From positions 30,477-94,476 of IMG/VR virus record IMGVR_UViG_3300030103_003268: a stretch of DNA of 64,000 bases; one strand, given 5' to 3'. This document shows positions 29,286 to 63,867 of the stretch, piece after piece. This DNA is from a virus. Below the pieces are notes generated by a model. That model saw nothing but the letters and a program-made list of their open reading frames with translations, was not told the DNA's origin and ran no database searches. Each line of letters starts with the position of its first letter. Positions within the stretch are counted from its first letter, which is position 1. A program made the translations under genes and the position numbers.

Positions 29286-29498
29286 TTAATACCCCTCATG
29301 ATAATAATCTCCATATGCTCTTGCATCTGCCGAATCATTTAATAAGTCTAATTTACAATCTTCACAAAGATTTTCAGGTTCGTAGCCCATTTCTCTAGCC
29401 ATTTTATTACCCATTTCATCATATTGGCTATATGTAGCAGGTTGTTTCTTACAGCGAACACACATATTTTTAATTATATTTTTCCACATAATAATCAA
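29286..29498 (-). CDS. Small Zn-finger protein with WxxIIK leader
   Basis: MWKNIIK; CVRC...CEDC. Confidence 0.6.
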   Translation of the reverse strand: MIIMWKNIIKNMCVRCKKQPATYSQYDEMGNKMAREMGYEPENLCEDCKLDLLNDSADARAYGDYYHEGY

Positions 29499-30811
29499 TC
29501 CAAGAAATAAACTAAATCTCCCTTGCCTTTCAAAATATCCATAGCCTCTTTACGAAGTATATCATACTTTTCTTTTGTTGAAATATTACCACCCGATTCG
29601 GTAATTAGAATACTTTGGTCGTCATGCCGGATAATTTCAGAAGCAACTAACTTAGTCGTTGCTTCGTGAATTGCAGACGGCACTCTATTATCACCGGCAA
29701 TATATGAAACAATAACTGAATTATTTCTATGATAGGGATAGTCCTTCAAAAAGAAAATACGCCCCTCTTCATTAATTGTCCAGAAATCACCAAGCCTTCT
29801 TAAGTCTTCTTTATCTGTAAATACTTCTATTGTGCAAACTGTCGGTATTTCATTTTCTGTGGTAAATGTTAATGGTGTTGAAAATGCTCCGCCCGTTGAG
29901 GAATGACTCAAAGTAATAGTTGTTGAATCTACAATAGCAGCAATTGTGGTTGAAGTCACTATATTAACTGCTCCGCTAACCACCATACCTACTGCTAATT
30001 TGCTAGAATCAGCAACAGTAAGGTTTGTTGAGTTATTGCCCGAACATGACTGTTTTATGGTGGCCTTGATGACACAATCTGCCCCATCATCCCCCGAAAG
30101 TAGGGATGAGATGAGAATTTGTTTCCCGTTTGACTTGGCCTTCGCACCATAGAAAAAGTCAGAAATGGCTAGATTAGAAGAAATAAGACTTTTTGGTGCA
30201 GTTGCTTTAGTAAATTGAGACATTGAAGGAAAAGACTCGTTTATTAAAGAAACAATATCATTAGCGGTAGTTTTTATTCCAAAGGTTGTATTGAATTCAT
30301 CATTTCCTAAACTACTAACATCAACTTCGCTTTTCATTTCAAAAGATACGCCACTATTAGGCAACTGAAGAATAATAGAATGCAAGTCTCTATAATTGTC
30401 TTGTAGAGTAATTTTTGCTTGAGCCGAAGCAATTTCAATATATTGACTTCCTTGCCACAATTGAAGAGAAACAATCTTTCTTACCTTCATCTTTGATAAT
30501 TGCACAAAACCGACATGACCTCCATAATACGCCTTATGCGGGAGGCGAGAAAATTCAAAGTTATGGTGTTCATCCTTTGTGATAATTGGTCGGTATGAAC
30601 GCTTCACCTTGTCATCAACAATACCCTCCACCCTTTTGATGATTGACCCGACTTGAGCCAATGTGGGGAAGGTAGATGCTGAAAAAGCGGGAACTTGTAA
30701 GAGATTCGCAACCTCAGTAGCGTTGGTATAATGTCCTCTTCCATCCGAATATAGCGGATTAATTTCCGTAAAATCGCTAGGCGAGATTGTTTGTCCCATT
30801 TCAAGCACCAA
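29495..30811 (-). CDS. Head-tail adaptor with inserted domains
   Basis: YTNATEVANLL N-terminus and VSYIAG...VPSAIHEATTKLVA C-terminus typical of gp6/gp15-type adaptors. Confidence 0.65.
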   Translation of the reverse strand: MVLEMGQTISPSDFTEINPLYSDGRGHYTNATEVANLLQVPAFSASTFPTLAQVGSIIKRVEGIVDDKVKRSYRPIITKDEHHNFEFSRLPHKAYYGGHVGFVQLSKMKVRKIVSLQLWQGSQYIEIASAQAKITLQDNYRDLHSIILQLPNSGVSFEMKSEVDVSSLGNDEFNTTFGIKTTANDIVSLINESFPSMSQFTKATAPKSLISSNLAISDFFYGAKAKSNGKQILISSLLSGDDGADCVIKATIKQSCSGNNSTNLTVADSSKLAVGMVVSGAVNIVTSTTIAAIVDSTTITLSHSSTGGAFSTPLTFTTENEIPTVCTIEVFTDKEDLRRLGDFWTINEEGRIFFLKDYPYHRNNSVIVSYIAGDNRVPSAIHEATTKLVASEIIRHDDQSILITESGGNISTKEKYDILRKEAMDILKGKGDLVYFLD

Positions 30812-36184: not shown

Positions 36185-37546
36185 TCAAAGCAAGTTGGTA
36201 ATCTTTCCTTGACCCTTGAAGTAAGAACAACCAGTTTCAGCCATTGTGCGGTAAAGAGCCTTGTTTCCAAGGTTGCCGACACCGAATGGGTTTCCGTTGC
36301 TGATACCGTCTTCAAAGTATTGAGTTGGCTTCATCACAGATAGCCACAAATGGTCAGTATCAAGGAACAACATATCGCTAATTAGGCTTGTATTTCTTCC
36401 AGTAGAAGGCATAGCCGCAACAGGAATCAAAGGAATGTCGTAGTAAGTAGAAACGCGGAATCCGACTTCTTGACCCTTAACACCACGAACACCGTTCACA
36501 GTTGGAACGATTTCCTTTCTATCCATAAATCGCTCTTGAGCCTGAAGCAAGTCAGAAAGCGTTTGAAGCGTATCATATCCCGTAAGAATGACCTTTGGCG
36601 AACCACCAGCAACACGAAGTCTGCGAACCATGTCGTTAATCACAGTTAGCGTCAATTGTCGTGCTTCTGTTGAAAGGTAGCCATCTCCGAAAGAAACTTC
36701 TGCATCCAAATACTCGTTTCCTGAATCACTTCGTTGTTTTCCGTAAAGATGGTCAATTGCTTGGTCAGTAGCAGTATCAACAAGGTTTCCACCAGAATCG
36801 TCAGCCAATTCGGTAATTTCAGCCGAGTTGCTTACAATCTTGTAAAGAGAAGTATATCCTCTATCAATAGCGTTTGTTGTGGCGTATGATGTAGTTGGGG
36901 AATAGTTCTCCAAAGGCATAACAAGCATTTGATTCTGGACTTCCGCGTGATGCTTACCCATATCCTCTCTCAATTGAGCACGAATATCACCGATACCATC
37001 GTCAATTTGAGCCATTTCCATAGCCAACTCACTGAAAGCGAATTGATGAGCAATGATTTTTGGGCTGGTAAAGAGCGTATCATACTCAGGAGCAATTGAA
37101 ATCAAACCATCTGTGTTTGAATCAAGACTGGCGTTTTCGGGAACACCACCGATACGGTCAGCACGAAGGGCATCAAGACCATACAAACCATCAGAAAGAG
37201 CCGTATTGGAAGCGGCGGTAATATCAAGGAAATTACCAGCACCGCCAGCAGGTCGCTTCTTTAGGATTCTCCAACCACTTGAAGAATAAGGTCGCTTTGC
37301 GATAACAGACAATGCGTTGCATTCTCGGTTTAGCATAGACCAGACTTTTTGACCATAAATCTTATTGTAAAGATTACCAGCAATACCCGTCGTTACGCCA
37401 GCGGCGTTTATTGCGCCATCGTGAGCGACATGAATACCGCTAACGGTTCCTGCCGCTTTGAGCAATTGGTTGCTAATATGACCAGTTGCGCCCGTTCCGT
37501 ATGTTGCTGCTTCTAAATCTGCAATAGTGTTAATATATCCTACCAT
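36185..37546 (-). CDS. Major capsid protein (HK97 fold)
   Basis: 453 aa after protease; GGVPEN, PKIIAHQF, YYDIPLI, FLDTDHL; strong RBS. Confidence 0.85.
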   Translation of the reverse strand: MVGYINTIADLEAATYGTGATGHISNQLLKAAGTVSGIHVAHDGAINAAGVTTGIAGNLYNKIYGQKVWSMLNRECNALSVIAKRPYSSSGWRILKKRPAGGAGNFLDITAASNTALSDGLYGLDALRADRIGGVPENASLDSNTDGLISIAPEYDTLFTSPKIIAHQFAFSELAMEMAQIDDGIGDIRAQLREDMGKHHAEVQNQMLVMPLENYSPTTSYATTNAIDRGYTSLYKIVSNSAEITELADDSGGNLVDTATDQAIDHLYGKQRSDSGNEYLDAEVSFGDGYLSTEARQLTLTVINDMVRRLRVAGGSPKVILTGYDTLQTLSDLLQAQERFMDRKEIVPTVNGVRGVKGQEVGFRVSTYYDIPLIPVAAMPSTGRNTSLISDMLFLDTDHLWLSVMKPTQYFEDGISNGNPFGVGNLGNKALYRTMAETGCSYFKGQGKITNLL

Positions 37547-37557: not shown

Positions 37558-38802
37558 TCAAAGGTTTCCTCCAACCATTTTATGAATATCAGCCCAATCC
37601 ATTTCGGCTAATTCTTCCATTGTGGGGAGTTTGACGGCGGCTTCCTCTTGAGCCTTAATGATGTTATCTCTCTCAGTCGTCAAAGACTTTCGGAGAGAAG
37701 CAAATTCATTCTTAAGAGAAGCGATTTCGCTTTGAGCATCATATTGAGCCTTAGCAAGAACATTTTCTCTTGAAGAGGTTTCAGCCTTGAAGCGAGCCTC
37801 AAATTGCTTTTGGAGGTTGTCGTAGGCTAACTTTTCAAGTTGTTCTTGACGGAAAGCATCGTAAGCCTTCTCAATGTTGCCAACGCTCAAATCAAGAGTT
37901 TCTAACTCTTCATTGTTGAATGCCTTAACAACTGGCAAATCAGAAGCCTTTGGTCGGCCTCCCTCAATGACGATTCTATCAGCAGGTTCGCCAATTTCTA
38001 CACCTGCTCCATCAAGAGTAGAGACATAGGCTTTGGCTTCATCATCCATAAATTCGCCCTTCTCATTCATCATCTTGTCTTTCTCAGACATCATTTTGTC
38101 CTTCTCAGACATCATGTTTTCGTCTTCCATCAACTTTTCCGACATCATTTTTTCGTCTTCCATGTCCATGTTTTCTTCTTCTTCTTCCTTTCTTAGCATA
38201 TTGACTTCTTCCATAAGAGCGTCAAGTTCCGCTAATGCTTTTTCAATTTTGGTCATATTTTTCACCTTTTTTGTTTTTTCTTGTTTTAAAATATCAAATT
38301 TTGCTTCTGGGTTAATTCCTTTCTCACAAATTGTGACTTCATGTAATTCTAACTTTGAAATTTCGTTGTATTGTCCAAATTCATCATTGGTTTTCTTTAC
38401 TTTTTCTAAAGCCTGTCCTCCAATACTAAAACTTCTTAATGAACCTTTTCTAATGCCTCTGTTAATTTCTTTGGCCTTTTCAATATCATCTCTTAATTTG
38501 ATTACTACAAAAAATCCTACATCATCAACTTCTGTTTTGAATAATCTTCCTGATTTATCTCGGTATGATTCAACTACTTCTCCGACTTGAACATTTGAAT
38601 GATTGGTCATTACATTTCTAAACTTTGGGTTCTCCATGTATTTATTTACCGCTTCTTTAAGGGCTTTGAGTGTGATTAAATCATTTTGCTTATCAACGAT
38701 TTCAATGCTTGCATATCCTCCAATCATCAAGTCGTCTTGGCTTTTTAGAATCCTGAAATCGTGAGCGTTGTTCCTCATCACCGCAGAAGTCATTCTTCTC
38801 AA
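37558..38802 (-). CDS. Prohead protease fused to scaffold region
   Basis: IGGYASIEIVDKQND, H(SN), SFSIGG, LHEVTICEKGINP; coiled-coil C-terminal half. Confidence 0.9.
   Translation of the reverse strand: MRRMTSAVMRNNAHDFRILKSQDDLMIGGYASIEIVDKQNDLITLKALKEAVNKYMENPKFRNVMTNHSNVQVGEVVESYRDKSGRLFKTEVDDVGFFVVIKLRDDIEKAKEINRGIRKGSLRSFSIGGQALEKVKKTNDEFGQYNEISKLELHEVTICEKGINPEAKFDILKQEKTKKVKNMTKIEKALAELDALMEEVNMLRKEEEEENMDMEDEKMMSEKLMEDENMMSEKDKMMSEKDKMMNEKGEFMDDEAKAYVSTLDGAGVEIGEPADRIVIEGGRPKASDLPVVKAFNNEELETLDLSVGNIEKAYDAFRQEQLEKLAYDNLQKQFEARFKAETSSRENVLAKAQYDAQSEIASLKNEFASLRKSLTTERDNIIKAQEEAAVKLPTMEELAEMDWADIHKMVGGNL
38070..38170 (-). repeat. Short tandem coding repeat (MMSEKDK) in protease/scaffold linker
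   Basis: KMMSEKLMEDENMMSEKDKMMSEKDKMMNEK, ~21-nt unit. Confidence 0.7.
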
Positions 38803-38837: not shown

Positions 38838-41765
38838 CTATTCTTCGGTGGGAAGGGGCAATTTGTTATACCTATCTTCATAGATATTCCACTTTCCTTC
38901 ATCCCCTTCCTTATCCGCAGGTGTTTGTTTGTAGCCAGTCCAAGCAAGCCACATTTTTTCTCCATCCACATCTAACACTCTATAATGCATTTTTGTTTCA
39001 AACTTACTGCCTTTCAAGAAATATTCATGGTAGCCATCCCTTTGAATACCTAAACTAATTTTGCCTGAATCTACTAATTTACCCTTAGTTACCGTTTTTG
39101 CTACTTCTGCTGGATATTTACCTGCCGCACCAAATAAGTCAAACATTTCTTCTTCGTTTTCAATATTGATAGTCCAAAACATATTTTCTGTTTTTAAGCC
39201 AATAGCGAAAGTTAAATTATCATCCTCTCTTGCGTAGATTTTAAATTCACCCTCTCTTAATTCTTTAGGAGTTTTATATTCCCCTTCAACTGCTTTAATA
39301 TCTTCTTTTAGCATAGCATATTTATCATCAAATCCACTCCCATATCGGCAGTTTTTATATTCTTCCGCTATCTCTTCAGTAGTCTTAATTTCTGTTGCTT
39401 CTTCATATAAAACATCACAATCCTTAATTGCAAAAATATCATCTCTAAAATCTTTTATTTCTTCTTCAACGCTATTTGTGCTTACTCTAAGTTTTTGTTT
39501 AACTGCTTCCCAACCGTCTTCTTCAACCTTTGCTTTCAATTGTTTTTCATATTGAGAAATAAGATTTTCCCTAAGTCTTTTACAACAATCTCCGTCAGTA
39601 TCTACATCAATTTGAATTACATCTTCTTTTTCTGCTTCATCAGCAATTTCTTTCATTCCTATTAACTCAGCCATTTTAGTAAAACTCTTTTTGATTTCTT
39701 CTTCTTGCATGATTTTGTCATCATCAGCAGAGAGTTTATCTTCTCTCTCACTGATACCATCTCTAAGAATAGCCCATTTTTTTAACTTCTTTTCATCAGA
39801 ATCAAGAACCTGTTCATATAAATCATTATGTTTTTCTTTTAAGAAATTATGTAATTGTCTTGGAGTTTGTTCTCCATTCATTTTTAAGTGTTGAAAAATA
39901 GCGACAGTTAATTCACTTTGTTTAGTTTTCATAATATCAATGGCTTGTTGTTTCCACATATCTAAGTCCATTGTAGCATTCTTAGACATTAGATTATCTT
40001 CTTCATAACCATAAATAGTAAAACCGTCTAAATCATATTTAATGATAACATTTGCTTCTCCGTGAATGTGGTCTGTAATCTTAACTCCTTTTGTAAATGC
40101 TTCAACATTATAGTTAAGAGACTTTTTAGTGTCTTGAGAAAGTAATTCTAAAGTAATTAACTTATCAGGATATTCAACTTCAGGAATTTCAATTGGTTTA
40201 GCAGAAAACAAACTAAACCCATCTCCTTTCTTTTTGACTTCATCAACCTTAACTCGGATAATTTCCCCAACATCAACAGCCATTTTTGTATTTAAAGCCT
40301 TACCCACATTCAAGTATTGCTTCTTATCAACTTCAACTGTTCCTTCCATTTCACCTGTGATTGGCCCAACTCCAACAGTATAAGAATATAAATTGCTTTT
40401 TGTCTTTTTCTTTTCTAATACAATAACATCTAGGTCAACAAACTTCTTTAATTTAATCCACTTAGGATTTTTCTTTGTTCCTATGTAATAAGTTGAAGTA
40501 GCGTCTTTAATAACAACTCCTTCCGATGCAGGATTTTTCATAATTTCATCAGCATACTTTTCTATGTCTTTTAAATTATCCGCTTGTCGTGTATCCTTTT
40601 TTGAAGGATAAGCGATTGCCTCACTAGTCTTTGAAGAATAATTGTTGAATAAAATTGTCATTCTACTTTCTAACTCTTCATCAGCAAGAGTCTGGGACTC
40701 ATGGCGAATAATATCAAAAACATGACATCTTAGTTTAGCATCTTTATATTTTCCTTTAAATACATGAGCGATTGTATCTGCTCTATGAAGGGGGTCATCG
40801 CCGTCAAAAAGAACTAATTCTGCATCAAAGATACAGTCTCCATATTCTTTTTTCTTTAATTCCTCAACTTGTGCTTTACATTTATCAGTAATATCTTTCT
40901 CATTATAAGAATAAACTTTTACTTTATCGTCAATTTTGTGTAGTTGAACTCTCATTCCATCAAATTTTTCTTGAACATACCAATTGCCACTAAATCCTTT
41001 TAATTCTTTAATATCATCCACTTCAAAAATTCTATACATTGGTTTATTAGGAACAATAAATTGGGAAATAGATTTTTTCTCATCACTTGGGATAGATTTT
41101 TTAACGCCCTCAATATCAGTGATGGTTGCCCATTCTTCTTTATTATTCTTAGATAAGAAAATTAATTCCAACATATCCATAGCAGCCCTTACTTTAGATT
41201 CAACTTTCTTTGAGTCTTTTCCATCCCCATAATGCTCAATAATATACAGGGCTATGTCGTCCACTTCTAGGTCAAGCCCCATAAGACCCTCCGTAATTGT
41301 GTCGGGAGTCATGTCTTTAACCCTGTAAATGTCATCAGATAGTGCTTTATTGTCGTCCCTTATAGCATAATGCACAAATTTAACCATGCTTTCGGGATTA
41401 TCTAGCAATTCTTCAAGGACACTATCCTTGAACATGGCGGCGAAGGGGTCGGCTACGATGGACGAAGAATACCTTAAAAGTTTAATATTTTCATAAAGTT
41501 CTTTGGCTTGGCGTGAAGAAGGGTCTTTGACATCTTTATCGTCTAAATCCTTTTCATCAATAAAGTTTTTCATTTCTTTGCCAGCCGCATCTGCCTCATT
41601 ATATGATTCAACAATGTTATCAACTGCTTTACGCCAGCGACCCGAATATTCTGTTGGGTCTTGCCTTGCAGATAAATAGGCTACCCGTGTCTTTTCAAAG
41701 AGACGAAGAATTTCTTGAGAAGGTTGTTTATCCTTCTCAATAGAAGCCAATTTCATACGAATCAT
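38838..41765 (-). CDS. lig: Multidomain ATP-dependent DNA ligase
   Basis: QEKFDGMR (motif I), FDAELV, FDII, EGVVIKD, WIKLK, OB domain; large extra N- and C-terminal regions. Confidence 0.9.
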   Translation of the reverse strand: MIRMKLASIEKDKQPSQEILRLFEKTRVAYLSARQDPTEYSGRWRKAVDNIVESYNEADAAGKEMKNFIDEKDLDDKDVKDPSSRQAKELYENIKLLRYSSSIVADPFAAMFKDSVLEELLDNPESMVKFVHYAIRDDNKALSDDIYRVKDMTPDTITEGLMGLDLEVDDIALYIIEHYGDGKDSKKVESKVRAAMDMLELIFLSKNNKEEWATITDIEGVKKSIPSDEKKSISQFIVPNKPMYRIFEVDDIKELKGFSGNWYVQEKFDGMRVQLHKIDDKVKVYSYNEKDITDKCKAQVEELKKKEYGDCIFDAELVLFDGDDPLHRADTIAHVFKGKYKDAKLRCHVFDIIRHESQTLADEELESRMTILFNNYSSKTSEAIAYPSKKDTRQADNLKDIEKYADEIMKNPASEGVVIKDATSTYYIGTKKNPKWIKLKKFVDLDVIVLEKKKTKSNLYSYTVGVGPITGEMEGTVEVDKKQYLNVGKALNTKMAVDVGEIIRVKVDEVKKKGDGFSLFSAKPIEIPEVEYPDKLITLELLSQDTKKSLNYNVEAFTKGVKITDHIHGEANVIIKYDLDGFTIYGYEEDNLMSKNATMDLDMWKQQAIDIMKTKQSELTVAIFQHLKMNGEQTPRQLHNFLKEKHNDLYEQVLDSDEKKLKKWAILRDGISEREDKLSADDDKIMQEEEIKKSFTKMAELIGMKEIADEAEKEDVIQIDVDTDGDCCKRLRENLISQYEKQLKAKVEEDGWEAVKQKLRVSTNSVEEEIKDFRDDIFAIKDCDVLYEEATEIKTTEEIAEEYKNCRYGSGFDDKYAMLKEDIKAVEGEYKTPKELREGEFKIYAREDDNLTFAIGLKTENMFWTINIENEEEMFDLFGAAGKYPAEVAKTVTKGKLVDSGKISLGIQRDGYHEYFLKGSKFETKMHYRVLDVDGEKMWLAWTGYKQTPADKEGDEGKWNIYEDRYNKLPLPTEE

Positions 41766-42303: not shown

Positions 42304-42549
42304 TCACTCCATCTTTGAAACCATTTTATGAATATCTGACCAATCCATGCTAGAAACATCAGTAGTGGGTAATGAGTCAAAACCACCAACGGTATTATCC
42401 ATAGCAGGAGTAGGGCTATTAGAAACAACTAAACCAGCCTTAGTCAAAAGACTGTCCTTTGCATAGATTGTCTTTTCTAATGCTTCAACCTTTGCGGTCA
42501 AAGCCTTAATAATTTCTAAAACATCTTTGTTAATACTTTCTTCTGTCAT
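42304..42549 (-). CDS. Small scaffold-like protein sharing the protease C-terminal motif
   Basis: Coiled coil plus MDWSDIHKMV. Confidence 0.7.
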   Translation of the reverse strand: MTEESINKDVLEIIKALTAKVEALEKTIYAKDSLLTKAGLVVSNSPTPAMDNTVGGFDSLPTTDVSSMDWSDIHKMVSKME

Positions 42550-42554: not shown

Positions 42555-42806
42555 TCACATTCCAAACTTTTCTTTGCATCTTTCTCTTGCTTTAGCATAA
42601 TCTTCTTCAGACATTCCGCCTCTTCCAAATTGTTGGTTTAAACGGTCAATACAAGCAAGATAACTTGAAGCATCTAAACTACTTCCCCTCATGGGCTTTC
42701 TTCTGCTTCCGCCCTTGAATCCTCTTGCGCTCATTCCTCTTGCTTTATTCAAATCACCCGAACAACCGCAACCGCATCCTGCTTTTAAAATTTCTTTCCA
42801 ACTCAT
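42555..42806 (-). CDS. WxxILK-leader small protein
   Basis: MSWKEILKAGCGCGC. Confidence 0.7.
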   Translation of the reverse strand: MSWKEILKAGCGCGCSGDLNKARGMSARGFKGGSRRKPMRGSSLDASSYLACIDRLNQQFGRGGMSEEDYAKARERCKEKFGM

Positions 42807-53609: not shown

Positions 53610-55192
53610 TCCTCTTCTTTCTTATTTTGTTCACTTTCTTTTAAGTCTCTCAGTCGTGCCTGTTCCCTATCATCGGCTTCCTTCAAGTTCATTAAGAATT
53701 TTTTGTATTCAACCACAACTGCTTCAATTCTAGCAGCCATTCTTATCTTTTTCTTTTCTTTGAATCCCTTATTTGCTGTTCTTGCATTAATCATATTCTT
53801 TGCGAATTTATCTATTCCAAGAGTTTGCATTTGTTCTAAGTTCTTTAAATGTTCTTTTCTGGTTAATCTAAAGGATTCTCTATCTCCTCGTTCTGTCTTT
53901 ATATCAGCAATTCTAATGCTATTTATCCAGTTTTGATACTCAACTTGTGCTTCTTGGTAGTCTGTTCTTCTCGCAGAAGCCTCAGAAAATCGTGCTTCGG
54001 CCTCTTCTATTCTTTTTTGCCTTGCCTTATCATCCTTTATATGTTCAGAATGGCCCGCATAATCTCCGCCTTCATGTCCCCTTTTAATCCCAGTTCCCCA
54101 AATATCATAAAATGTATTGAAAGAAGACAATGGATAACTCTGAGTAGTTGGTCTTACGCTGTCTAAAAATATTAAAACCTTTTTTAAGGGATTTCTCCAC
54201 ATAGACTTTCTATCAAATTTATTTTTATCTTTGCCTACAATTGGTGAAGAACTACTCAACATATCAGTTCCTTCATTATAATTTTGTGGAAAAGGAGCAA
54301 ATGTAATATAAGCAAAATCTTCGGGATTGTCTGTCAAATAAGCCCAACCCGCAGTTCTAGGACTTGATTCTCTTATTTTATCAGCCAACTCAGGTAAAAG
54401 GTCTGTTCTTTTTGCAGCAGGATGGTCTGCAATTCTTTTACTTTTTGCTCTTACAAGATAATGTGGTCTATAAGCAATATTATGTTCTTTGCTATATTTG
54501 TGAGGATTGTCATTGTCTTTTCTAGCGGTGCTGAGTATTTCAGTTTCATTGTCAGTGTCATCTAACATTGTATTGAATGTGCTATCTGGTAAAATCTTTA
54601 AAATATTTTTCCAAGACTTTTCAAGGGTTTCTTGTTTAAAAAGATTAAACCATGAGGGCGCAGGGTCGTCAAGATAAACACACTTCGCAAACTCACCCTT
54701 TCCACGAATATTACGAATAGCCCAATTACCATTAGGGTATGCACTATTCCATTCATTTACTACTGATTCAGGGAGCAATTGCTTCATTTGTTCCCAATTT
54801 TCACTATCTGGAAAAGCCCATCCATTCTGTTTTGCAGTAGCAATCCAACGAGCATTATCTCCATCCCTGTGTCCAAAAGCAGCAACTAAGGGCTTAGATT
54901 GGTTTAACTGTGGCTCTCTCGCATCTTGTAATGCACGATTATTTCCACCAATCTGCCTTCCTTCGGCAGAAGCATACATTCCACCAACAACAGTATGAGA
55001 AGGATGTTCTTTAAAACCAACTGTTGATATTGCCTTATCTTCATCATTTACACGAATAAGCCAATTGTCTAAAGCATAAAGACCAGTTTCTAAATCCTTT
55101 CTGCGAGTATATGGGTCGTCAGGATTATCCTGAGCAAACCTTCTTTTCATATCTTCATATGAAAAAATCGCAGGAAGAACCTTAACCATCAA
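53606..55192 (-). CDS. Two-part protein: possible GNAT-like N-terminal domain, internal WxxLFK/WxxILK motifs, second domain
   Basis: VGGMYASAEGRQIGG; SWFNLFKQ and SWKNILKI. Confidence 0.6.
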   Translation of the reverse strand: MMVKVLPAIFSYEDMKRRFAQDNPDDPYTRRKDLETGLYALDNWLIRVNDEDKAISTVGFKEHPSHTVVGGMYASAEGRQIGGNNRALQDAREPQLNQSKPLVAAFGHRDGDNARWIATAKQNGWAFPDSENWEQMKQLLPESVVNEWNSAYPNGNWAIRNIRGKGEFAKCVYLDDPAPSWFNLFKQETLEKSWKNILKILPDSTFNTMLDDTDNETEILSTARKDNDNPHKYSKEHNIAYRPHYLVRAKSKRIADHPAAKRTDLLPELADKIRESSPRTAGWAYLTDNPEDFAYITFAPFPQNYNEGTDMLSSSSPIVGKDKNKFDRKSMWRNPLKKVLIFLDSVRPTTQSYPLSSFNTFYDIWGTGIKRGHEGGDYAGHSEHIKDDKARQKRIEEAEARFSEASARRTDYQEAQVEYQNWINSIRIADIKTERGDRESFRLTRKEHLKNLEQMQTLGIDKFAKNMINARTANKGFKEKKKIRMAARIEAVVVEYKKFLMNLKEADDREQARLRDLKESEQNKKEEE

Positions 55193-55195: not shown

Positions 55196-57691
55196 TCACC
55201 TAAAAGATGCTTTGATTAGATAAACTTGTTCACTACTGATACCATATTCTCTTGAGATATTCTCATGAGAATCAATAGCCTTAACGATTTGTTCAACTTC
55301 AAACGAAGTCAAGTCAATATTATCTTCAACCTGCATCTGAGTAATCATCTTATTAACTCCATAATCGTTCATAGGAATTTGGTTATAAATTACTTTCTTC
55401 CCTAATTCTTCTCTAATGGCATCATGGGCCTTCAATAACTTGTGAAGAAGAACAGGCAAGTCCACTTGAGCAGATTCAAAGATAGCCTTTAATCTATTAT
55501 ATGCTGCCTTTTTAGCAGGACTTCCTTTTGTTAAAATACCTTGGTTCATATCTAACCAATGAGGCAAGGCAAATACAGCGAAGGGTTTTCTAGCATAAAA
55601 ATCTTTAAAGAAGTCTTCACTTCTTTCAACAATGGTTTTGCCCGCAAATTTATTGTTCGCTCTCTTCATATCGCCAGTTTCTTGCATATAATGATAAAGT
55701 AGTGCTGCCGCATAGTTGTCATTCTTTTCTTCTGTTTTGCTTCCGAAAATATTAGTTAATGCATCAGCAAACTCTTCTGCATCACTAATAATTTCAGTTC
55801 CAATCTTAACTTCAGGCATAAAAATACTATCTAAGAAATCAGCAACTGCGTTCATATCACCGACATCAATTTCTTCTCTTGAGCCAGCAAATAAAGTGTC
55901 ATAAGCACCAGACATAACAGTATCTAACCCTAAATCAAGACTTAATGTTTGTATTACCTTTGAACCGATGCCTGATGCAAAAGAGGGCATTTCAATGGGT
56001 AGCATACCACTATAAATAGGGTCAAAATAATATTTAATAGCAGAATCCATCATTTTCTGAAGTTCTTCTTTAAATCCTTGTAGTTCTCCTCTCATAGTTC
56101 CCTTTTGATTTAAAGACAACGGAACAGCCCCACCACTAATTTGACCGACAGTTGAACCTTTACCTTCATAATAATCAAATTGGCTTCCCCTTCCTCTTCC
56201 TTTAGAACTTCTTGCATCAACTTCAGCAATAAAGTCTTCATCTGATAAAATATCATATAAGTCATTAAAAAATTCTCTAATCGCAGGAATATTTTCCGAG
56301 CCTATCATTTCTCCTTCGCCAACAGAACGGAACTTATCTTTATTACCATACATTTTAGCAAATTTAGTGTTATCTAAAACAGAAACAGGTAAAGCCTGAA
56401 CAGGAGCATCTCCTTCACTAAGAATGTGAGTATCAACCGTTTGTTCTAACCATTCTTCAATGTCCACTTGAGTTTCTAAAGAAACCCCCTCTCCCTCGTC
56501 CAAATACTCAATCATATCTTCAAGCATCTCTTTAATTTCCGATTCCATTCTTGAGTTAATGGCTATTAATTTTTCTCCTCTAACATATTCGTAAATTAAT
56601 AGTGGGTCTGCCTGAGAAATAAGTGCATCGTATTCTTCTTCCCAAGTTGTTTTCTGTTGTAATTCTTCTTCCCATTCAGAAACATCAAGGTCAATTGCTC
56701 CGCCTTGGGTGCTACTTCCAGACGCTAAGGAAGATTCAAGATATCTAAGCATTTGAGCATTTACATCTCCTTCCATACCCGATTCATCAGCATATCCAGT
56801 TTGAGAGGTGTCTTTATCCATCATTCGGTCAATAGCCAACTTGTGAACAACAATGTTAAAGAACCTATGATAGCCGGATTCAAATGGGCGAGTGATGTCT
56901 TCAAACTCAGCAATATATTCTAAATTTATACGGCCATCAAGAATTTGTTTATATAGTTTATTAAATTTATTTTGAATTTCTTCAGGGAAGTCAATATTTT
57001 CAACTTCAATAAAGAAATTAGCCATATCTTCTTCAAACTGTTCATAAAGTTTCCCAATTCCTGCCCAATAATTATATACTTTTTTACGGACAGATTTTTT
57101 AGACACATCAGTTGCTCCTAAAAAGTCGTTCATATTAATTTTAAACTCTTTATATTCAGCAACATCTAAAGTATCTTCAAGGGCTTCTTGAATTAATTCT
57201 AAATTGTGTCTAAAGTTTTCAGGCAACTTAACAGCCTTATTTGATACGATTGCATTTATTTCTTGTAGCACATCTTTTCTAGGATTTCTAATATCAATTC
57301 TTCCTTTGATTTTATTACTAGTCAATTGAACAGAAGTAATCCTTGCACCTTGATTATACATATTTAAACGCAAAAATGGCTTAACTACCTCTTCCATGCT
57401 ACTTGAAGCAAGTTCGGTTTTCTTTGCCTTTTTTCCTTTCATTTGTTCTCTAATGTGCTTTCTTGCTCCTTTGGCTTTTCCAGCAATTTTACTAAAAGCA
57501 AGTTTTCTTGCACCCTCTTCTTCAATTAAACGAGCCTTATCCTTTAAGGCATTAGTAAATCTAGTAACAATACTTGCGATTTCTGTTCTTTGTTCTGACT
57601 TATCGGAAAGAGCCAAACCTTCAACTCTTTCGGGAGATAAATTAAGCATTTCCTTTTCTTCTGGAGTTAAAAGTATCGTTTCCTCTGTCAT
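55196..57691 (-). CDS. Large acidic protein (possible internal virion protein)
   Basis: 831 aa ORF. Confidence 0.7.
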   Translation of the reverse strand: MTEETILLTPEEKEMLNLSPERVEGLALSDKSEQRTEIASIVTRFTNALKDKARLIEEEGARKLAFSKIAGKAKGARKHIREQMKGKKAKKTELASSSMEEVVKPFLRLNMYNQGARITSVQLTSNKIKGRIDIRNPRKDVLQEINAIVSNKAVKLPENFRHNLELIQEALEDTLDVAEYKEFKINMNDFLGATDVSKKSVRKKVYNYWAGIGKLYEQFEEDMANFFIEVENIDFPEEIQNKFNKLYKQILDGRINLEYIAEFEDITRPFESGYHRFFNIVVHKLAIDRMMDKDTSQTGYADESGMEGDVNAQMLRYLESSLASGSSTQGGAIDLDVSEWEEELQQKTTWEEEYDALISQADPLLIYEYVRGEKLIAINSRMESEIKEMLEDMIEYLDEGEGVSLETQVDIEEWLEQTVDTHILSEGDAPVQALPVSVLDNTKFAKMYGNKDKFRSVGEGEMIGSENIPAIREFFNDLYDILSDEDFIAEVDARSSKGRGRGSQFDYYEGKGSTVGQISGGAVPLSLNQKGTMRGELQGFKEELQKMMDSAIKYYFDPIYSGMLPIEMPSFASGIGSKVIQTLSLDLGLDTVMSGAYDTLFAGSREEIDVGDMNAVADFLDSIFMPEVKIGTEIISDAEEFADALTNIFGSKTEEKNDNYAAALLYHYMQETGDMKRANNKFAGKTIVERSEDFFKDFYARKPFAVFALPHWLDMNQGILTKGSPAKKAAYNRLKAIFESAQVDLPVLLHKLLKAHDAIREELGKKVIYNQIPMNDYGVNKMITQMQVEDNIDLTSFEVEQIVKAIDSHENISREYGISSEQVYLIKASFR

Positions 57692-59976
57692 TCTTCCTCA
57701 TCTCCTGTGTCTTTAATGATTCCAAGCCTTTGAAATTGAGTGTTTGCTACGATTACTTTATTGTCTGGGAAATTTTGTGGCTTATTTACAAACTCTTCCA
57801 GACGGGCTTTAAACGCAACAATGATGCTTTCTTTGATATTAGATATAATGCTTGGCATTTTCTTATTTAATTCTCTTGCGGCATCCTTGGCCTCTTGCGA
57901 ATCGGGGTTATCGTCTATGGTCTTAAACGCTTCCCTGACTTCTTCATTTCCAGCCAGTTCATCTACTTGAGCAAAGAAACTAAGGCTTCTTTCGGGAGTA
58001 ATTGATTCTAAAGCGGTGGCTTTGTTTGCCATTTCATCCGCAAGCCCTAAAAGTCCTCCCTGAGAAGACAATTTTTTACCAGTAGATAATAAATATTGTT
58101 CAAAATTGTCCATATTTAATAATTCTTCACGAAGAGCGTCAAGTTGTTGAGTCATATCAATTTGTTCTTTACCTTGTGCTCTTTTTTCTGCTTGTTGAAG
58201 CCGTTGCTCAAGATTCTTAATCTTTTCATCGGCTCGCCGCTTAGATTCTTCTTTTGTTGCTCCTGCTCTTTGTTTTCTAGCAGTAATCAATTTTTCCTTT
58301 AATCCAGCAACCGTTGTTTCTGTTGCTTGTCTTTGATTATCTGAAGTTTCAGCAGTTCTGCCCTTAATGTCTGCCTTGTATGCTTCTTCGGGAGAAATAA
58401 TGTCTCCTTCAACATTAAATACTGCATAATTAGCAAACTGTTTTCCATCTCCTTCAACCGTTAGCATTTGCCCCGACTCATCATATTGTTTATTTCCCTT
58501 TTCATCAAGGTCAGGTGCGATAAACTTTGCTTTTCGCCCATCTTTAAAATACTCCACAGAATATTCATCTTCTTCAGGTTCGGGATTGCCTTCACCTGCT
58601 GGAACTCTTGTTAAACCTGCCGATTTTAAATATTTTTCATAAGCAGTGGCCTCTTTAATTGTAAAATTACCTTCAAGGAATTGTAAAGACTCTCTTTGTT
58701 TCTCTAATGCGGCTTCGCTGATAGAAGTTTCTAATCTATCGCTTTCTTTAATGGTGTTTCTAATTTCAGCAGTAATCTTTTTTCTTGATTTTGTATTAAC
58801 ATCATCAATTCTAAATGGACGGACTCTAATCCCGTCTTTTGTAGTTGTTTCTCCATCAACTAATGCTTGATAAATCCCATCAATGATTTGTTCTGTGGCT
58901 TGTTCTTCTGTAAGGTTCTGTTGGATTCTTAAGGCATCAAAGAAAGGTTTTTCCCATTCATTGGGAAACTCATTTGTCAAAATAATTTGAACAAATGGGT
59001 TCACATTCATTGATTTTGTGCTAGATTTTGCTAAAAATATGACATTTGCGAAGGAAGCACCGTTCTCAAAGTTTTTTGGCTTAAATGCTTCAATACTTCC
59101 AGGAATTTTATTAACTGCTCTAATATATTTTATAACAGACGCGCCAGTAAAGGGTTCAACTATGGCTTTTCTTTCTTGTGAAGCAACAAAAATCTTTTTT
59201 CTGCGAACCATATCATCAACTTCAACAGTTTCGCTACCCGAAACGAACAACATTTTAGTATTTGTCTTACTTCCATCAGGATTTCTCATAATTTTATTGT
59301 AAGTTTTCTTAACTTTGTCTTTTTGCTTAATGGTAGCGTCATCGTCAATGATTTCTTTTGTCTTTTTATTTCTCTTTGGAACCATTAGAGCGACAAGTTC
59401 GCCATTATTCTTTAAATCTGTTAAAATAGAGCCTTCTTTCAGTTCCCCTTCAATTGCTTCGGCAAAATCGGCCAAAAGTTTTTCATTTTGTGGGGGATTT
59501 TCAAACATAATTACAGATTGTCCTGATTTTTCACGCAAAATGTCTAGGGCATCTCTAATATCTCGGTTTCTTTTAAGTGTTCTTGTTGATAAATCAGCAT
59601 TTTGCTCAATATTTTCTAAAATTTCATTGACTTTTTGCTCATCATCGTTTCTTTTGGCTTCCATAGCCTCACGAAGAAGTTTTCTTACATCATCAATTGT
59701 CATAAAACTAGCGGCTTCTTTCAGTTTTTGAACATTTTCTTTCATTTGGTCAAGAGTTTGGTCGCCCATTGGTGGTTTTGAGTAAAGTCTATGAAGTTCT
59801 TCTATATTTAATTGACCTGTTTCTACACTTCTTAACAATTCTTTGAGTTTTTGTGGGGGAGTTTTGAGATTTTGAATGTCCTGAATGGCTTTTTCCATTT
59901 GTTTTGAACTAGCAATAACTAATCCCAGCATCGGTTTATTGACTGGAATCATTTTCAGTTGCTCAAACCAACTCAT
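57688..59976 (-). CDS. Large protein with W-leader; true start probably ATG 59976
   Basis: MSWFEQLK preceded by the repeated RBS element. Confidence 0.7.
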   Translation of the reverse strand: MSWFEQLKMIPVNKPMLGLVIASSKQMEKAIQDIQNLKTPPQKLKELLRSVETGQLNIEELHRLYSKPPMGDQTLDQMKENVQKLKEAASFMTIDDVRKLLREAMEAKRNDDEQKVNEILENIEQNADLSTRTLKRNRDIRDALDILREKSGQSVIMFENPPQNEKLLADFAEAIEGELKEGSILTDLKNNGELVALMVPKRNKKTKEIIDDDATIKQKDKVKKTYNKIMRNPDGSKTNTKMLFVSGSETVEVDDMVRRKKIFVASQERKAIVEPFTGASVIKYIRAVNKIPGSIEAFKPKNFENGASFANVIFLAKSSTKSMNVNPFVQIILTNEFPNEWEKPFFDALRIQQNLTEEQATEQIIDGIYQALVDGETTTKDGIRVRPFRIDDVNTKSRKKITAEIRNTIKESDRLETSISEAALEKQRESLQFLEGNFTIKEATAYEKYLKSAGLTRVPAGEGNPEPEEDEYSVEYFKDGRKAKFIAPDLDEKGNKQYDESGQMLTVEGDGKQFANYAVFNVEGDIISPEEAYKADIKGRTAETSDNQRQATETTVAGLKEKLITARKQRAGATKEESKRRADEKIKNLEQRLQQAEKRAQGKEQIDMTQQLDALREELLNMDNFEQYLLSTGKKLSSQGGLLGLADEMANKATALESITPERSLSFFAQVDELAGNEEVREAFKTIDDNPDSQEAKDAARELNKKMPSIISNIKESIIVAFKARLEEFVNKPQNFPDNKVIVANTQFQRLGIIKDTGDEEE

Positions 59977-59992: not shown

Positions 59993-60304
59993 TCACATAC
60001 CCATCCTACTATAATAAGAGGTATCAAGATGGAAATGTCCACCACCAAAATCGACGATATACCCAAATTGCTTAACTCTATCAATGTCGGAATTAAATTT
60101 CGCTCTCGTATCTAAAAGTTTTTTATAGAGTTCAATAAACTTATCAGAAGAAATGTTGTTTTCCATATCCTTAATCAAATTCATAAATCCTTTGCGGTCT
60201 TGGGGTGCAAGTTTATATGCCATTTTTTCAAAGGACTTTTCTAACTTAGCAACAAGTGTGTTTCTTTTGGCTCTTTCGTTTTTTAAGATAATTTCCCAAC
60301 TCAT
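59993..60304 (-). CDS. WxxILK-leader cassette protein
   Basis: MSWEIILKN. Confidence 0.7.
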   Translation of the reverse strand: MSWEIILKNERAKRNTLVAKLEKSFEKMAYKLAPQDRKGFMNLIKDMENNISSDKFIELYKKLLDTRAKFNSDIDRVKQFGYIVDFGGGHFHLDTSYYSRMGM

Positions 60305-60320: not shown

Positions 60321-60512
60321 TCAATCTAAACTTTGGTCTGTTGCATCAATTGTTATTGTTTTACCAACCAATTTCTTAATTTTTCCATCCAATACTAAGG
60401 CGACCATTTCTCCCGTATCAGCAATTGTTAAACTACCCGAAACACCTTTTTGGGAAGAACCATCGTCGTAATTTAGAACTAATTTATTTTTTAATATATC
60501 TTCCCAACTCAT
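60321..60512 (-). CDS. WxxILK-leader cassette protein
   Basis: MSWEDILKN. Confidence 0.7.
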   Translation of the reverse strand: MSWEDILKNKLVLNYDDGSSQKGVSGSLTIADTGEMVALVLDGKIKKLVGKTITIDATDQSLD

Positions 60513-60529: not shown

Positions 60530-60952
60530 TTATGGCAATTTTATCTGATTGATGGTTTCCACAATTTTTCTTTGAAGTTCTTCAGTTATTTCATCCACCC
60601 AATCGTATTTATTCCGATACATCCAACCGGAATCCCAATTTCCATTTCTCCTACTAACAGTAAATGTTGGCTTAAGCCCCCACCTTCTATTGGACTCTGC
60701 TGGTAATTTAGTGAATCTAACATATGCCTTAATATGTTCATCTTCTTTTTCTTCTTCTGGATAAAATGTAAGTTTAATGTCAATTAGCATATTGCCTCGT
60801 TTTGTCCTTTTATTAACTTCTAGTTCCCCATAAGGGTTTAAACGGGGCTTATTGGGAGTGTTACGATATTCTTCAATAAGAGAGTTGATTTTATTTTTTA
60901 TTGGTTCAATAAGTAAAGTAAGTTCTTGTTTCAATATATTTTTCCAAGTCAT
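60530..60952 (-). CDS. WxxILK-leader cassette protein
   Basis: MTWKNILKQ. Confidence 0.7.
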   Translation of the reverse strand: MTWKNILKQELTLLIEPIKNKINSLIEEYRNTPNKPRLNPYGELEVNKRTKRGNMLIDIKLTFYPEEEKEDEHIKAYVRFTKLPAESNRRWGLKPTFTVSRRNGNWDSGWMYRNKYDWVDEITEELQRKIVETINQIKLP

Positions 60953-61623
60953 TGTAATCTCTCCTGCATTTTACTTTTTATGTCCAGCCAAATCTCAGGA
61001 TTGTTCTGTGCTAATACTTCTTGAACAATTTGCATCTGTGCGATAACGATAGTATCTTGTCTCTTATGAATCAATTTACCCTTGAACTCCATAAGATACT
61101 TCAAAGATTCTCTAATCTCTCTTGCTAACTTAGTTAGGGCATCAATCATCCTTGGGTCAAGGTCATTACCCAAATCATTGAACACTTGCTCTAAACGCAT
61201 ATCTAACTTCTGCACATTGTTTGAAAGCAAATCAACTTCATTTACTTCCTTTTTTGCTATCATCATGGCCGCAGATTCTTGGACGATTGGTGCCAAGTGG
61301 TGCTTCATGTGGCGTTGCACCTGTGTTTTTGTGGTGCCTAGCGCAGAAGAAACAGCCTCACTTGAGATATTACCTTCTTTTAGTGCTTGTTCGTAGTGTT
61401 TCCTCATTGGGTCTGTGCATAGAACACATTGAGGATTTGACGACATTTTGTATTCGCCCATGTGGTTTCTTTGATGTTGTGCCGCAGTTCCACTTCTCCA
61501 GTTATGAATAGTGTCTAATTCATCGCAAGTCGCCTGTCCTGTTTCAAGGGCAGATTCAAGTTCTTCCCTGTTCGGTGCTTGACAAAGACCACAACGCTTA
61601 CGATTAACTGTCATATCAATCAT
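60949..61623 (-). CDS. Probable terminase small subunit (duplicated CxxC...HxxxH Zn/HTH units)
   Basis: CGLC...HQRNH and CVLC...HMKHH, helical C-terminus; upstream of TerL. Confidence 0.6.
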   Translation of the reverse strand: MIDMTVNRKRCGLCQAPNREELESALETGQATCDELDTIHNWRSGTAAQHQRNHMGEYKMSSNPQCVLCTDPMRKHYEQALKEGNISSEAVSSALGTTKTQVQRHMKHHLAPIVQESAAMMIAKKEVNEVDLLSNNVQKLDMRLEQVFNDLGNDLDPRMIDALTKLAREIRESLKYLMEFKGKLIHKRQDTIVIAQMQIVQEVLAQNNPEIWLDIKSKMQERLQ

Positions 61624-61864
61624 CCTTTAATTGGTCTAAATATTTTTGATATTGAGCAATTTTCTTTTTACAATGTTCTTTAATGTATTTAATGTCTTTT
61701 TGAACTTCTACATCGCTTCTTTGTTCATCATTCATACCCATAATATGCTCAACATAATTGTTAAATTCATTAGGGGTGTCGCCCATTGAACCCCAAAATT
61801 TACTTTTAGAATAAATAGGGTGATAATTTTTTTTACTAAATTTCTTTATTTCATCTTTCCACAT
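61616..61864 (-). CDS. Small protein with W-leader variant
   Basis: MWKDEIKK. Confidence 0.6.
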   Translation of the reverse strand: MWKDEIKKFSKKNYHPIYSKSKFWGSMGDTPNEFNNYVEHIMGMNDEQRSDVEVQKDIKYIKEHCKKKIAQYQKYLDQLKDD

Positions 61865-61865
61865 T

Positions 61866-63029
61866 TTACTCTCTCCATAAAAGTTGTTGCCACATTTTAG
61901 AAATAACCTTTTGATTAGGATTCAATTTAAAATCATCATCTTGATATGTTTTTGGATATTTTTCTCTTGCTGTTTTTCTATAATCAAAACCAGTCTTTCT
62001 ATCATTTTGCCATGCTCGGAAACCATTCGGTGCTTTGTTGGTATTTTTTCGCTTTAGGGCTCTATCAACTAAATTTATGATAGGTAAAGCAGTAAGTGTA
62101 ATTCCAGTAACTGTTCCAGTTAAAGAATCCTTTTTTCCTTCTTCGCCCAAGTTGCTTACCCTTCTTGCTAGTGATTGTTCTTTAGCATTAGGCTTAATTT
62201 GAAAGTTTGTGGCTTTTAATTCAGAACGAACCTTATTTGTGAGTAGCCTTCCTCCAGCATTCCAGTAGGTATTACTACGAACAATTTTATTAAAAAATTC
62301 TTCAACAGACCGAATACCATCAACTTCACCATCAAATTGTGGAGGGATTCTCTCAACCTCAACTTCAATTTCCATATCATCAAGGTCTTCTACTGCTTGC
62401 TTCATAATCCACAAAAGACCTCTAGGATTCGCAAACTTTGTTTTAACTTTTGAGAATAATGCTTGATGGGGAGGATTTCCTCCCTCAAAACCATCAATGT
62501 TAATAACATGGGCTAACCATTCATCGGGAACTTTTGTTACGCCTTTATTTCTTTTAGCATACCATTCTGTCGCATAATGTCCTTGAACTTTACGGGGTCT
62601 TTTCTTTTGACCTGTTTTGGTTTTATCAACCTCAGTAAAAAGAATAAATGCGGGGTCACGCGCTGGCCCTTTTCCACCAGCATCGTCACCTTCACGGTAA
62701 TAACTTTCTAATGTTTTTGCTTGTTCTTTAATAATTTCCTCATGCTCACCATCAAACAAATCATTATCAACAATTGCTTCAATAAATTCAATAAACTCAA
62801 TAGCGCCTTCACCATCACGGCCCTTGTTTCTACTTCCGGCACGAATGTTGTTCATCATGTGGGTTTTAAGAAACATATACAAATTAGGAACATTCTTAAC
62901 CTGCATGGCTGCGCCTGAAATACCTTGACAGGTCTGCCTCCAAGTGTTAAATTCGTTCACAAACTTAAACTCAGTTTGATTAACTTTATTTCCTTTATGG
63001 GGCTGAAAGTTCTTTTTCTTCTTACTCAT
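61866..63029 (-). CDS. Hypothetical protein
   Basis: 387 aa ORF. Confidence 0.7.
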   Translation of the reverse strand: MSKKKKNFQPHKGNKVNQTEFKFVNEFNTWRQTCQGISGAAMQVKNVPNLYMFLKTHMMNNIRAGSRNKGRDGEGAIEFIEFIEAIVDNDLFDGEHEEIIKEQAKTLESYYREGDDAGGKGPARDPAFILFTEVDKTKTGQKKRPRKVQGHYATEWYAKRNKGVTKVPDEWLAHVINIDGFEGGNPPHQALFSKVKTKFANPRGLLWIMKQAVEDLDDMEIEVEVERIPPQFDGEVDGIRSVEEFFNKIVRSNTYWNAGGRLLTNKVRSELKATNFQIKPNAKEQSLARRVSNLGEEGKKDSLTGTVTGITLTALPIINLVDRALKRKNTNKAPNGFRAWQNDRKTGFDYRKTAREKYPKTYQDDDFKLNPNQKVISKMWQQLLWRE

Positions 63030-63867
63030 CCTTCTTCCTCCGCTTCTTTCTACCCCTTACCACCTTATTAAACATAGCGGGGGCTGATGTCGTGCTAACT
63101 GCACCAGTCATTTTAAGTTCACTATCATTGAAAGTAATACTGCTGTTAGGAAATTTATCAGCCGCCTTTAGTTTCTCAAAGAAATTTTTGTGCTCTTTAC
63201 CATATCTCTTAAGCCAAGTATTGATGTTATCAGGCTCTATTACTGCACTAAAGGTTTCTCTTGGTTTCTGTGTTCTGGCTGTCACTTCAAGTTTTGCTAA
63301 TTTATTCTTAATTTTATCCTTAATAACGGCATTAACATTTAACGAATCTGTCAAGACTTCCGCCCATGCCACAAACTTGGTTAAATCATCAATAGATTCT
63401 TTTTCTGCTGTGCCTTTAATATTGAGTATATTTGCTAACATGGGAGGAATAACTCTCGTTCTTACGGCGGGGTGTTCTAAATATGACCTTATTCTATAAA
63501 AAATATTATCAGGGAATTGCCCAGTAAAAGCACCATATTCCTTTGCTGCGTCATCCATTGGTAATTGGTCTAATCCCATGGCCGCATGTGTCGCTTCGTG
63601 CATAATTGCTCTAACAACAAATTCTTGGATTTCTCTCTCAGTTGGTTCTCTTTCTAGTTTTTCCTTAAGATAATCATATATTTTTACATGATTGATTCTT
63701 ATTTCCTCTTCCATCAAATCTTTCAAAGCAGGAGCCTTTCCTGCCAAAATAGAATTAAATATTTCCTTAGAGTCTATTGGCGCGCCCGAAATGCCATAAT
63801 GCCCAAAACCCCGAATATCTTTATCAAAGTCAATATCCTCAACTTTAAGAATACTAAACCAAGACAT
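63022..63867 (-). CDS. Zincin-like metallopeptidase with WxxILK leader
   Basis: MSWFSILK (ATG 63867, GGAGG RBS); AIMHEATH...E motif. Confidence 0.7.
   Translation of the reverse strand: MSWFSILKVEDIDFDKDIRGFGHYGISGAPIDSKEIFNSILAGKAPALKDLMEEEIRINHVKIYDYLKEKLEREPTEREIQEFVVRAIMHEATHAAMGLDQLPMDDAAKEYGAFTGQFPDNIFYRIRSYLEHPAVRTRVIPPMLANILNIKGTAEKESIDDLTKFVAWAEVLTDSLNVNAVIKDKIKNKLAKLEVTARTQKPRETFSAVIEPDNINTWLKRYGKEHKNFFEKLKAADKFPNSSITFNDSELKMTGAVSTTSAPAMFNKVVRGRKKRRKKDE

Follow-up and report, generated by a model that had tools for sequence, protein, structure and literature searches.

Why do seventeen otherwise unrelated proteins of one virus begin with nearly the same short peptide? The question is raised by a stretch of 64,000 nucleotides, here called the window, which covers bases 30477-94476 of IMG/VR record IMGVR_UViG_3300030103_003268, a viral sequence of 94,476 bp on one contig, and whose gene architecture agrees with that of the 'magroviruses' of Marine Group II archaea (PMC5434244). 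Its plus strand carries a replication arm of archaeal type, with clamp loader, sliding clamp and polymerase-like genes recognized by their N-termini, and its minus strand a morphogenesis arm of tailed-virus type. In the latter, 15 open reading frames (ORFs) start with a canonical tag, M-x-W-x-x-[IV]-[IL]-K, and two more with a degenerate version. We believe, with a probability of about 0.55, that the tag is a capsid-loading and protease-processing label comparable to the capsid targeting sequence (CTS) of phage T4, analogous but not homologous to it, and we infer that tagged proteins are bound, packaged, cleaved and ejected.

A shared peptide at the start of unrelated proteins

The tagged ORFs of the window are the following (lengths in amino acids, aa):

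63022..63867, minus strand: 281 aa, MSWFSILK; HExxH string, no Pfam family
61616..61864, minus strand: 82 aa, degenerate tag MWKDEIKK
60530..60952, minus strand: 140 aa, MTWKNILK
60321..60512, minus strand: 63 aa, MSWEDILK
59993..60304, minus strand: 103 aa, MSWEIILK
57688..59976, minus strand: 762 aa, MSWFEQLK; a long protein, helix-rich as judged by eye
50136..50309, minus strand: 57 aa, degenerate M-Q-D-T-T-T-L-W-F-E-M-L-K with W as residue 8, the tag starting seven residues in
49603..50130, minus strand: 175 aa, MSWKNILK; Cys-rich
49265..49606, minus strand: 113 aa, (M)NWINVLK; TTG start, very basic
49128..49268, minus strand: 46 aa, MKWEEILK
48705..49127, minus strand: 140 aa, MTWKSVIK
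48125..48700, minus strand: 191 aa, MNWFSILK; soluble PAP2 phosphatase domain at residues 98-186
47773..48132, minus strand: 119 aa, MNDWKEILK
47473..47763, minus strand: 96 aa, MEEWQNILK; DUF6321 domain at residues 24-91
45060..45365, minus strand: 101 aa, MNNWENIIK; directly downstream of the portal gene, kept in 36 of 80 related loci
42555..42806, minus strand: 83 aa, MSWKEILK
29286..29489, minus strand: 67 aa, MWKNIIK; CxxC pairs, among tail genes

A six-frame scan of the window for W-x-x-[ILVMQ]-[ILVM]-K returned 24 matches, 22 of them in minus-strand frames, and 16 of these 22 lie within a few codons of a start codon and are followed by an ORF of at least 44 aa. No gene of the plus-strand replication arm carries the tag. 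Three further tagged ORFs are found on the same strand outside the window, at genome coordinates 1-1260, and, should the record be a circular permutation, form part of the same arm. Altogether, at least 18 tagged N-termini are observed in the genome as compared to 0.03 expected over 147 ORFs from its amino-acid composition. An earlier note on this DNA had listed 17 tagged ORFs and had placed the tag exclusively in the morphogenesis arm; all 17 are present, 15 as canonical and two as degenerate forms, and the confinement to this arm is borne out by the lack of any copy in the replication arm. A tag-like string that is one residue short occurs at 47061-47327, where an 88-aa ORF contains an internal Met, which may be its true start, followed by S-W-K-Q-L-K.

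When one member each of 73 families is aligned, the consensus of the tag reads M-[STN]-W-[KFEQ]-[DNES]-I-L-K and the residues after its Lys show no conservation. Within the genome, too, the parts behind the tag are mutually unrelated, as had been noted before and as BLAST clustering, which separates them, now confirms. The tag sits outside the known domains (PAP2 and DUF6321): in ORF 48125..48700 a basic linker of ~90 aa stands ahead of the PAP2 domain, and since DUF6321 spans residues 24-91 of ORF 47473..47763, the tag and the Lys run of this protein are an N-terminal add-on. Among the cargo domains that the earlier note had named, the PAP2 phosphatase is confirmed, while the HExxH protease is not: the string is present in the 281-aa ORF but no Pfam protease family is matched.

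Could it be the nucleic acid rather than the peptide that is conserved, as an optimum for translation start or as a recombination handle for the shuffling of cassettes? The starts of four consecutive tagged genes (59970-60946) share ~20 nt upstream, GCAGGAGAGATTACA-ATG with the ribosome binding site included, which suggests a local duplication or recombination of cassettes. However, the codons for Ile, Leu and Lys vary synonymously from copy to copy while the amino acids remain constant, and it is therefore the peptide that is under selection and not a DNA repeat, which we reject for this reason. As the same peptide moreover occurs in loci of 29 to 46% GC and also in the middle and at the ends of proteins, we give next to no credence to conservation at the nucleic-acid level.

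The tag across related viruses

The first set of relatives comprised 80 loci around related portals and a wider one ~190 related marine viral loci. In the 80 loci the motif is matched 539 times on the gene strand as compared to 37 times on the opposite strand, and 384 matches lie no more than 5 codons from a start. Clustering of the ~190 loci places the tag at the head of at least 203 unrelated families, each with at least 60 aa behind it; of the families in the first 80 loci, roughly every second one has a single member. Inside orthologue families W, I/L and K are constant and the adjoining residues drift. The number of unrelated families, together with the variation of synonymous codons, upholds the earlier view of a portable tag that acts at the protein level. 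The tag is also present in a second clade, represented by at least 599 loci, whose capsid protein is 64% identical, and no tags were found in archaeal viruses with a capsid protein ~45% identical or in the halovirus HVTV-1.

Searched as a DNA pattern, the subtype M-[ST]-W-F-D-I-L-K was found in 30 viral stretches with ~1 expected, all of them in marine contigs (~11-103 kb, 29-46% GC) in which as many as 20 tags occur within 15 kb, never on both strands. Of the arrays seen, that of IMG/VR 3300030332_000980 is the densest, with 20 tagged genes, all on the same strand, in a stretch of 14.8 kb. Among prokaryote genomes, 596 Gb in total, the same subtype gave 9 isolated single matches in unrelated bacteria, which is approximately what chance would produce, and no match in archaea. 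The earlier note had named an equal frequency of the motif in host proteins as evidence that would speak against its proposal; for this one subtype the frequency in prokaryote genomes is at chance level, and a host sorting signal is rejected on these grounds. The magrovirus literature that was searched contains no description of the tag and makes no mention of an N-terminal motif, and a literal search for six tag strings retrieved unrelated frog peptides only.

The proteins behind the tag are varied. A Pfam match at E <=0.001 was obtained for 6 of the 149 family representatives scanned, and the strong matches are three: PAP2, pentapeptide repeat and DUF6943. Along with the pentapeptide-repeat protein, whose repeats form a DNA-mimic fold in other systems, the cargo includes one weak match to the N-terminal region of HsdM; these two hint at possible anti-restriction roles. 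A basic character, which had been put forward for the cargo, is no general trait and the idea was dropped, as net charge is unbiased with 85 families positive and 108 negative. The tagged families are almost entirely soluble, a marginal hydrophobic stretch being found in only 2 of 203. A signal peptide or membrane anchor was therefore rejected for want of a hydrophobic core, and with nothing conserved after the Lys and marginal hydrophobicity in 2 of 203 families the tag does not qualify as a Sec/Tat or class III signal peptide either.

A related thought is that the tag is itself a short amphipathic helix which anchors proteins to the cell membrane, given that W, I and L share one helix face and that W-K-D-I-L-K also begins the frog dermaseptins, membrane-active helices retrieved among the literature matches. 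But eight residues are very short for an anchor, nothing amphipathic is conserved beyond the Lys, and the middle of the tag keeps a residue that is acidic or polar. The tagged proteins moreover are without other membrane features and, as described below, scaffold proteins end in the same pattern. An anchor of this kind is thus very improbable.

Other magrovirus lineages (93-115 kb) carry a 12-residue leader, M-[TN]-[AP]-F-[DE]-x-A-W-x-[LVI]-[LV]-K, which we call the type-2 tag and which heads 281 distinct N-termini in 80 loci as compared to ~0.1 by chance. About a third of these have a Pro at the second position behind the Lys. The hydrophobic-[LV]-K end is the only part common to all tags and lineages.

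The tag had been described at N-termini, but internal and C-terminal copies occur as well. In the window internal copies are found in the following protein:

53606..55192, minus strand: 528-aa protein just upstream of the gene for the terminase large subunit (TerL), with PSWFNLFK (54635-54658) and KSWKNILK (54596-54619) as internal copies

In the family of this protein a conserved N-domain of ~180 aa, which was judged by eye in the earlier note to be GNAT-like, is always followed by P-x-W-F-N-L-L-K, and the C-terminal parts behind the motif are interchangeable and range from 10 to ~500 aa; in one relative the ORF stops three residues past the motif. Going by its sequence, the 528-aa protein looks like a cargo fusion or a polyprotein. 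Type-2 tags are also seen at C-terminal ends, as in A-F-S-L-A-W-N-L-L-K-S-E-stop. A motif that is found at either end or in the middle of proteins fits a docking peptide better than a leader made only for removal.

Likeness to the head-assembly proteins

If the tag docks, the question is to what. Among the proteins of the same genome that resemble it most are several of head assembly, and the relevant features are these:

37558..38802, minus strand: prohead protease (Peptidase_S78) fused to scaffold, referred to as the protease-scaffold
38743-38757, minus strand: F-R-I-L-K, before the protease domain of the protease-scaffold
38284-38298, minus strand: F-D-I-L-K, after the protease domain of the protease-scaffold
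37579-37602, minus strand: tail M-D-W-A-D-I-H-K at the C-terminal end of the protease-scaffold
42304..42549, minus strand: 81-aa 'mini-scaffold' with M-D-W-S-D-I-H-K (42325-42348) at its C-terminal end
36185..37546, minus strand: major capsid protein, HK97 fold, with N-Q-L-L-K30 at 37457-37471

When every one of the 28,371 octamers in the proteome was scored with a weight matrix built on the tag sequences, the best match that is not N-terminal was K-S-W-K-N-I-L-K, a copy within the 528-aa protein whose gene precedes that of the terminase. Ranks 2 and 3 are taken by M-D-W-S-D-I-H-K of the 81-aa protein and M-D-W-A-D-I-H-K of the protease-scaffold; the second internal copy in the 528-aa protein and F-D-I-L-K at the end of the protease domain come next. 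The tag and the scaffold tails of the same virus agree in 5 of their 8 residues (M-x-W-x-[DE]-I-[LH]-K), and both of these scaffold-type C-terminal tails are kept in ~160 related loci, in both clades.

A second kind of likeness concerns the end of the tag. Two motifs directly enclose the protease domain and are fixed in 28 protease-scaffolds of 53-95% identity: F-x-I-L-K-S on its N-terminal side, preceded by a hypervariable leader, and F-D-I-L-K on its C-terminal side, followed by a hypervariable acidic linker. The corresponding flanks read S-I-L-K and F-S-I-L-K in one further lineage, F-L-L-K and Y-T-I-L-K in another, and N-I-F-K or L-L-L-K and F-x-V-L-K in distant relatives that are tag-less. 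The capsid protein contains an invariant N-x-L-L-K at residues 26-30, in a leader that is disordered in the monomer model (predicted local distance difference test score, pLDDT, <50 for residues 16-60) and lies ahead of the HK97 fold; the leaders of further lineages contain S-E-L-L-K or T-D-L-L-K. Among 65 diverse capsid proteins, read by eye, nearly all have a Lys followed by [AST]-D-x-P at the junction of leader and fold. In the capsid-protein family the leader is 25-50 residues long, with h-x-D-h-E-x-x-Y-Y-G, and the junction in full is Lys then [AST]-D-x-P-h-h-[ST]-[ST]-T, which we regard as a candidate for a family-wide maturation site. Because this junction is nearly family-wide, an ancestral maturation cut specific for Lys is plausible. 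The capsid protein of HK97 itself is cut after Lys103. The earlier proposal of a Lys-specific analogue of the T4 system stands in part: membership of the protease in the S78 family and the conserved junction Lys make specificity for Lys plausible, but T4, whose protease is of a different family, provides an analogy only.

On this basis the tag could work as follows. The peptide M-[STN]-W-x-[DNES]-[IV]-[IL]-K would fold into one and a half turns of an amphipathic helix whose one face bears W, I and L, and this helix would dock its carrier protein onto a component of the assembling procapsid. The capsid protein could receive it on its inner face, the scaffold in its core, or the protease-scaffold in its substrate groove, and this last receptor would account for the protease-like end being common to all tags. 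Once docked, the protein would become enclosed in the head, where the S78 (HK97-type) prohead protease would cut after the Lys of the tag, as it would at the hydrophobic-L-K sites at the borders of its own domain and at residue 30 of the capsid protein. The cargo would thereby be set free in the head and possibly enter the host with the DNA.

Another explanation would be that the tag does no more than mark proteins for the S78 prohead protease, or for a different protease specific for Lys; it would be a short propeptide that is taken off to activate or mature them and has no role in loading. This would account for the fact that the hydrophobic-[LV]-K end alone is common to both tag types and recurs at the flanks of the protease domain and at the leader/fold junction of the capsid protein. 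It would not explain, however, that the W and the residues preceding the end are as conserved as the ILK end, and at C-terminal copies a cut would take off no more than 2-3 residues. In HK97 and T4 assembly a prohead protease does not normally work outside the procapsid, which its substrates must therefore have entered beforehand. We therefore consider pure processing improbable.

The likeness to the scaffold tails calls for a further comparison, since a shared receptor would be expected to hold the tag and the tails together in evolution. Protease-scaffolds from five type-2-tag genomes were used for a test of co-variation. In two of these genomes (111-115 kb) the protease-scaffold ends in M-S-W-D-E-V-H-N-L, like that of the window itself; in the three others (93-97 kb) the tail is a different one, G-W-R-A-A-E-M-L, and that of the mini-scaffold is altered in step to E-W-E-A-A-E. 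The tails of protease-scaffold and mini-scaffold thus switch together across lineages, from M-S-W-D-[DE]-[IV]-H to [GE]-W-x-A-A-E, as is expected if both bind one partner. The tag does not follow: all five genomes share the type-2 tag despite two types of tail. A shared receptor is therefore unsupported beyond the lineage of this genome, and mimicry of the scaffold by the tag, having failed the test in the type-2 lineages, is likewise unsupported.

This result leaves room for a docking peptide whose partner is not the capsid at all but a hub which organises, times or stabilises accessory proteins, possibly those of early host takeover. A chaperonin, the proteasome, an unfoldase, or the replication or transcription machinery, of the virus or of the host, would be candidates, and the resemblance to the scaffold tails would then be a coincidence or due to a shared helper. 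Where the tagged genes lie bears on this explanation, and the landmarks of the arm are these:

52173..53609, minus strand: TerL, untagged, given for context
45367..47007, minus strand: portal protein, untagged, given for context
26910..28574, minus strand: tail tube protein
38838..41765, minus strand: ATP-dependent DNA ligase fusion of 975 aa, within the head module and directly upstream of the protease

Many tagged genes stand before the terminase gene, at the upstream end of the minus-strand arm, and the cargo is mostly ORFan but includes enzyme-like and DNA-mimic-like proteins (PAP2, pentapeptide repeat) that are typical of host-takeover genes; both observations favour a non-capsid hub, as does the lack of co-variation with the scaffold tails. 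Then again, some tagged genes are interspersed among those for terminase, portal and protease, and in the whole proteome it is two scaffold-type C-terminal ends and a border of the protease that match best internally. The tag, in the one subtype searched for, does not occur in prokaryote genomes beyond chance and hence is no host sorting signal, and a candidate for the hub itself did not emerge. We regard such a hub as unlikely, though not negligibly so.

Several observations also weigh against the capsid-loading label that we favour. Besides the missing co-variation of tag and tails, these are the absence of any residue preference after the Lys and the position of F-D-I-L-K inside the Pfam S78 match, which means that it may be a strand of the protease fold and not a cut site. 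The predicted structure of the protease-scaffold (pLDDT 49) is too poor to show whether F-x-I-L-K lies in a linker, and a profile search with this protein found no solved relative. In addition, the many tagged genes at the upstream end of the arm could be early genes, and a virus of 95 kb would be unusual in packing twenty different cargo proteins into one head.

As for the neighbouring genes, the 975-aa ligase fusion has a counterpart in position in the halovirus HVTV-1, where a 1313-aa 'zeta toxin' protein is encoded similarly, a few genes ahead of the prohead protease, and each of the two is a candidate for a large protein inside the head. A portal at least 81% identical to that of the window is encoded by >400 IMG/VR contigs, several of them of 94-96 kb. 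In the phage collection there is no named magrovirus record, and haloviruses, at 24% identity, are the only matches.

Known targeting systems and meaning for magroviruses

The internal proteins of T4 carry an N-terminal capsid targeting sequence of 10-20 residues which brings them into the prohead and is removed by the prohead protease (PMC7411985). A short N-terminal peptide common to otherwise unrelated proteins is what the T4 CTS of IPI-III and Alt and the tag have in common. They differ in that the T4 protease is of the gp21 type and cuts after Glu, whereas the protease here is a Pfam Peptidase_S78 (HK97 type) with a putative cut after Lys, and in numbers, with ~4 CTS proteins in T4 as compared to ~20 tagged proteins per genome and at least 203 families here. 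Furthermore, the host is an archaeon, and the motif is also internal and C-terminal. Homology to the T4 machinery, with its gp21-type protease cutting after Glu and its core proteins, was not found; the protease here is an S78 enzyme that forms one protein with the scaffold. T4-type phages are polymorphic at the locus of their internal proteins, much like the tagged gene set described here.

The cargo-loading peptides of encapsulins are similar as well: short terminal peptides with hydrophobic residues and a basic end which load unrelated cargo into a shell of HK97 fold, and encapsulins are among the fold matches of the capsid-protein model. Encapsulin peptides are mostly C-terminal, have another consensus and are not known to be cleaved, and encapsulins are cellular compartments without DNA.

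Terminal peptides on scaffolds and prohead proteases are, furthermore, the textbook route into a prohead. Reportedly, in the work of Duda et al. 2013, a terminal peptide carries the HK97 protease into the prohead. The C-terminal tail of SPN3US gp245 has been proposed to do the same (PMC7411985). In comparison with HK97 gp4, SPN3US gp245 and the scaffold tails of P22 and herpesvirus, the protease-scaffold and mini-scaffold described here likewise have a conserved short helix at the C-terminal end, which in this virus reads M-D-W-x-D-I-H-K; the tag differs from such scaffold or protease tails as it is N-terminal, sits on non-structural accessory proteins and does not co-vary with the tail. In the giant phages phiKZ and SPN3US the prohead protease acts on many proteins of the head interior, and N-terminal propeptides have been proposed to target them (PMC7411985). 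These propeptides comprise tens to >100 residues, share no single short motif and are cleaved after Glu.

It is possible, if doubtful, that the system goes further and amounts to a programmable delivery by magroviruses, in which any soluble protein bearing the tag of 8-12 residues is tethered in the procapsid, where the substrate groove of the protease-scaffold may hold it, is freed when the tag is cut after its Lys, and enters the host by injection along with the DNA. If true, the tag would have arisen anew in different lineages, as types 1 and 2, around one ancestral protease specificity, and the viruses would dispose of hundreds of interchangeable effectors against Marine Group II archaea, candidates for anti-defence or host-takeover proteins.

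Magroviruses are among the most abundant archaeal viruses of the surface ocean, but the viruses and their hosts are uncultured and most of the viral genes are without known function. The tag could serve for the loading of cargo into virus-like particles, and its expression in a laboratory host alongside capsid protein and protease-scaffold would offer a simple experimental handle. If it is indeed a capsid-loading label, the targeting principle of T4 would extend to archaeal viruses with an HK97-type protease. A shared label, if true, would mean that roughly one fifth of the genes in each genome, along with hundreds of ORFan families, fall into a single functional class, that of candidate head-internal and possibly injected proteins.

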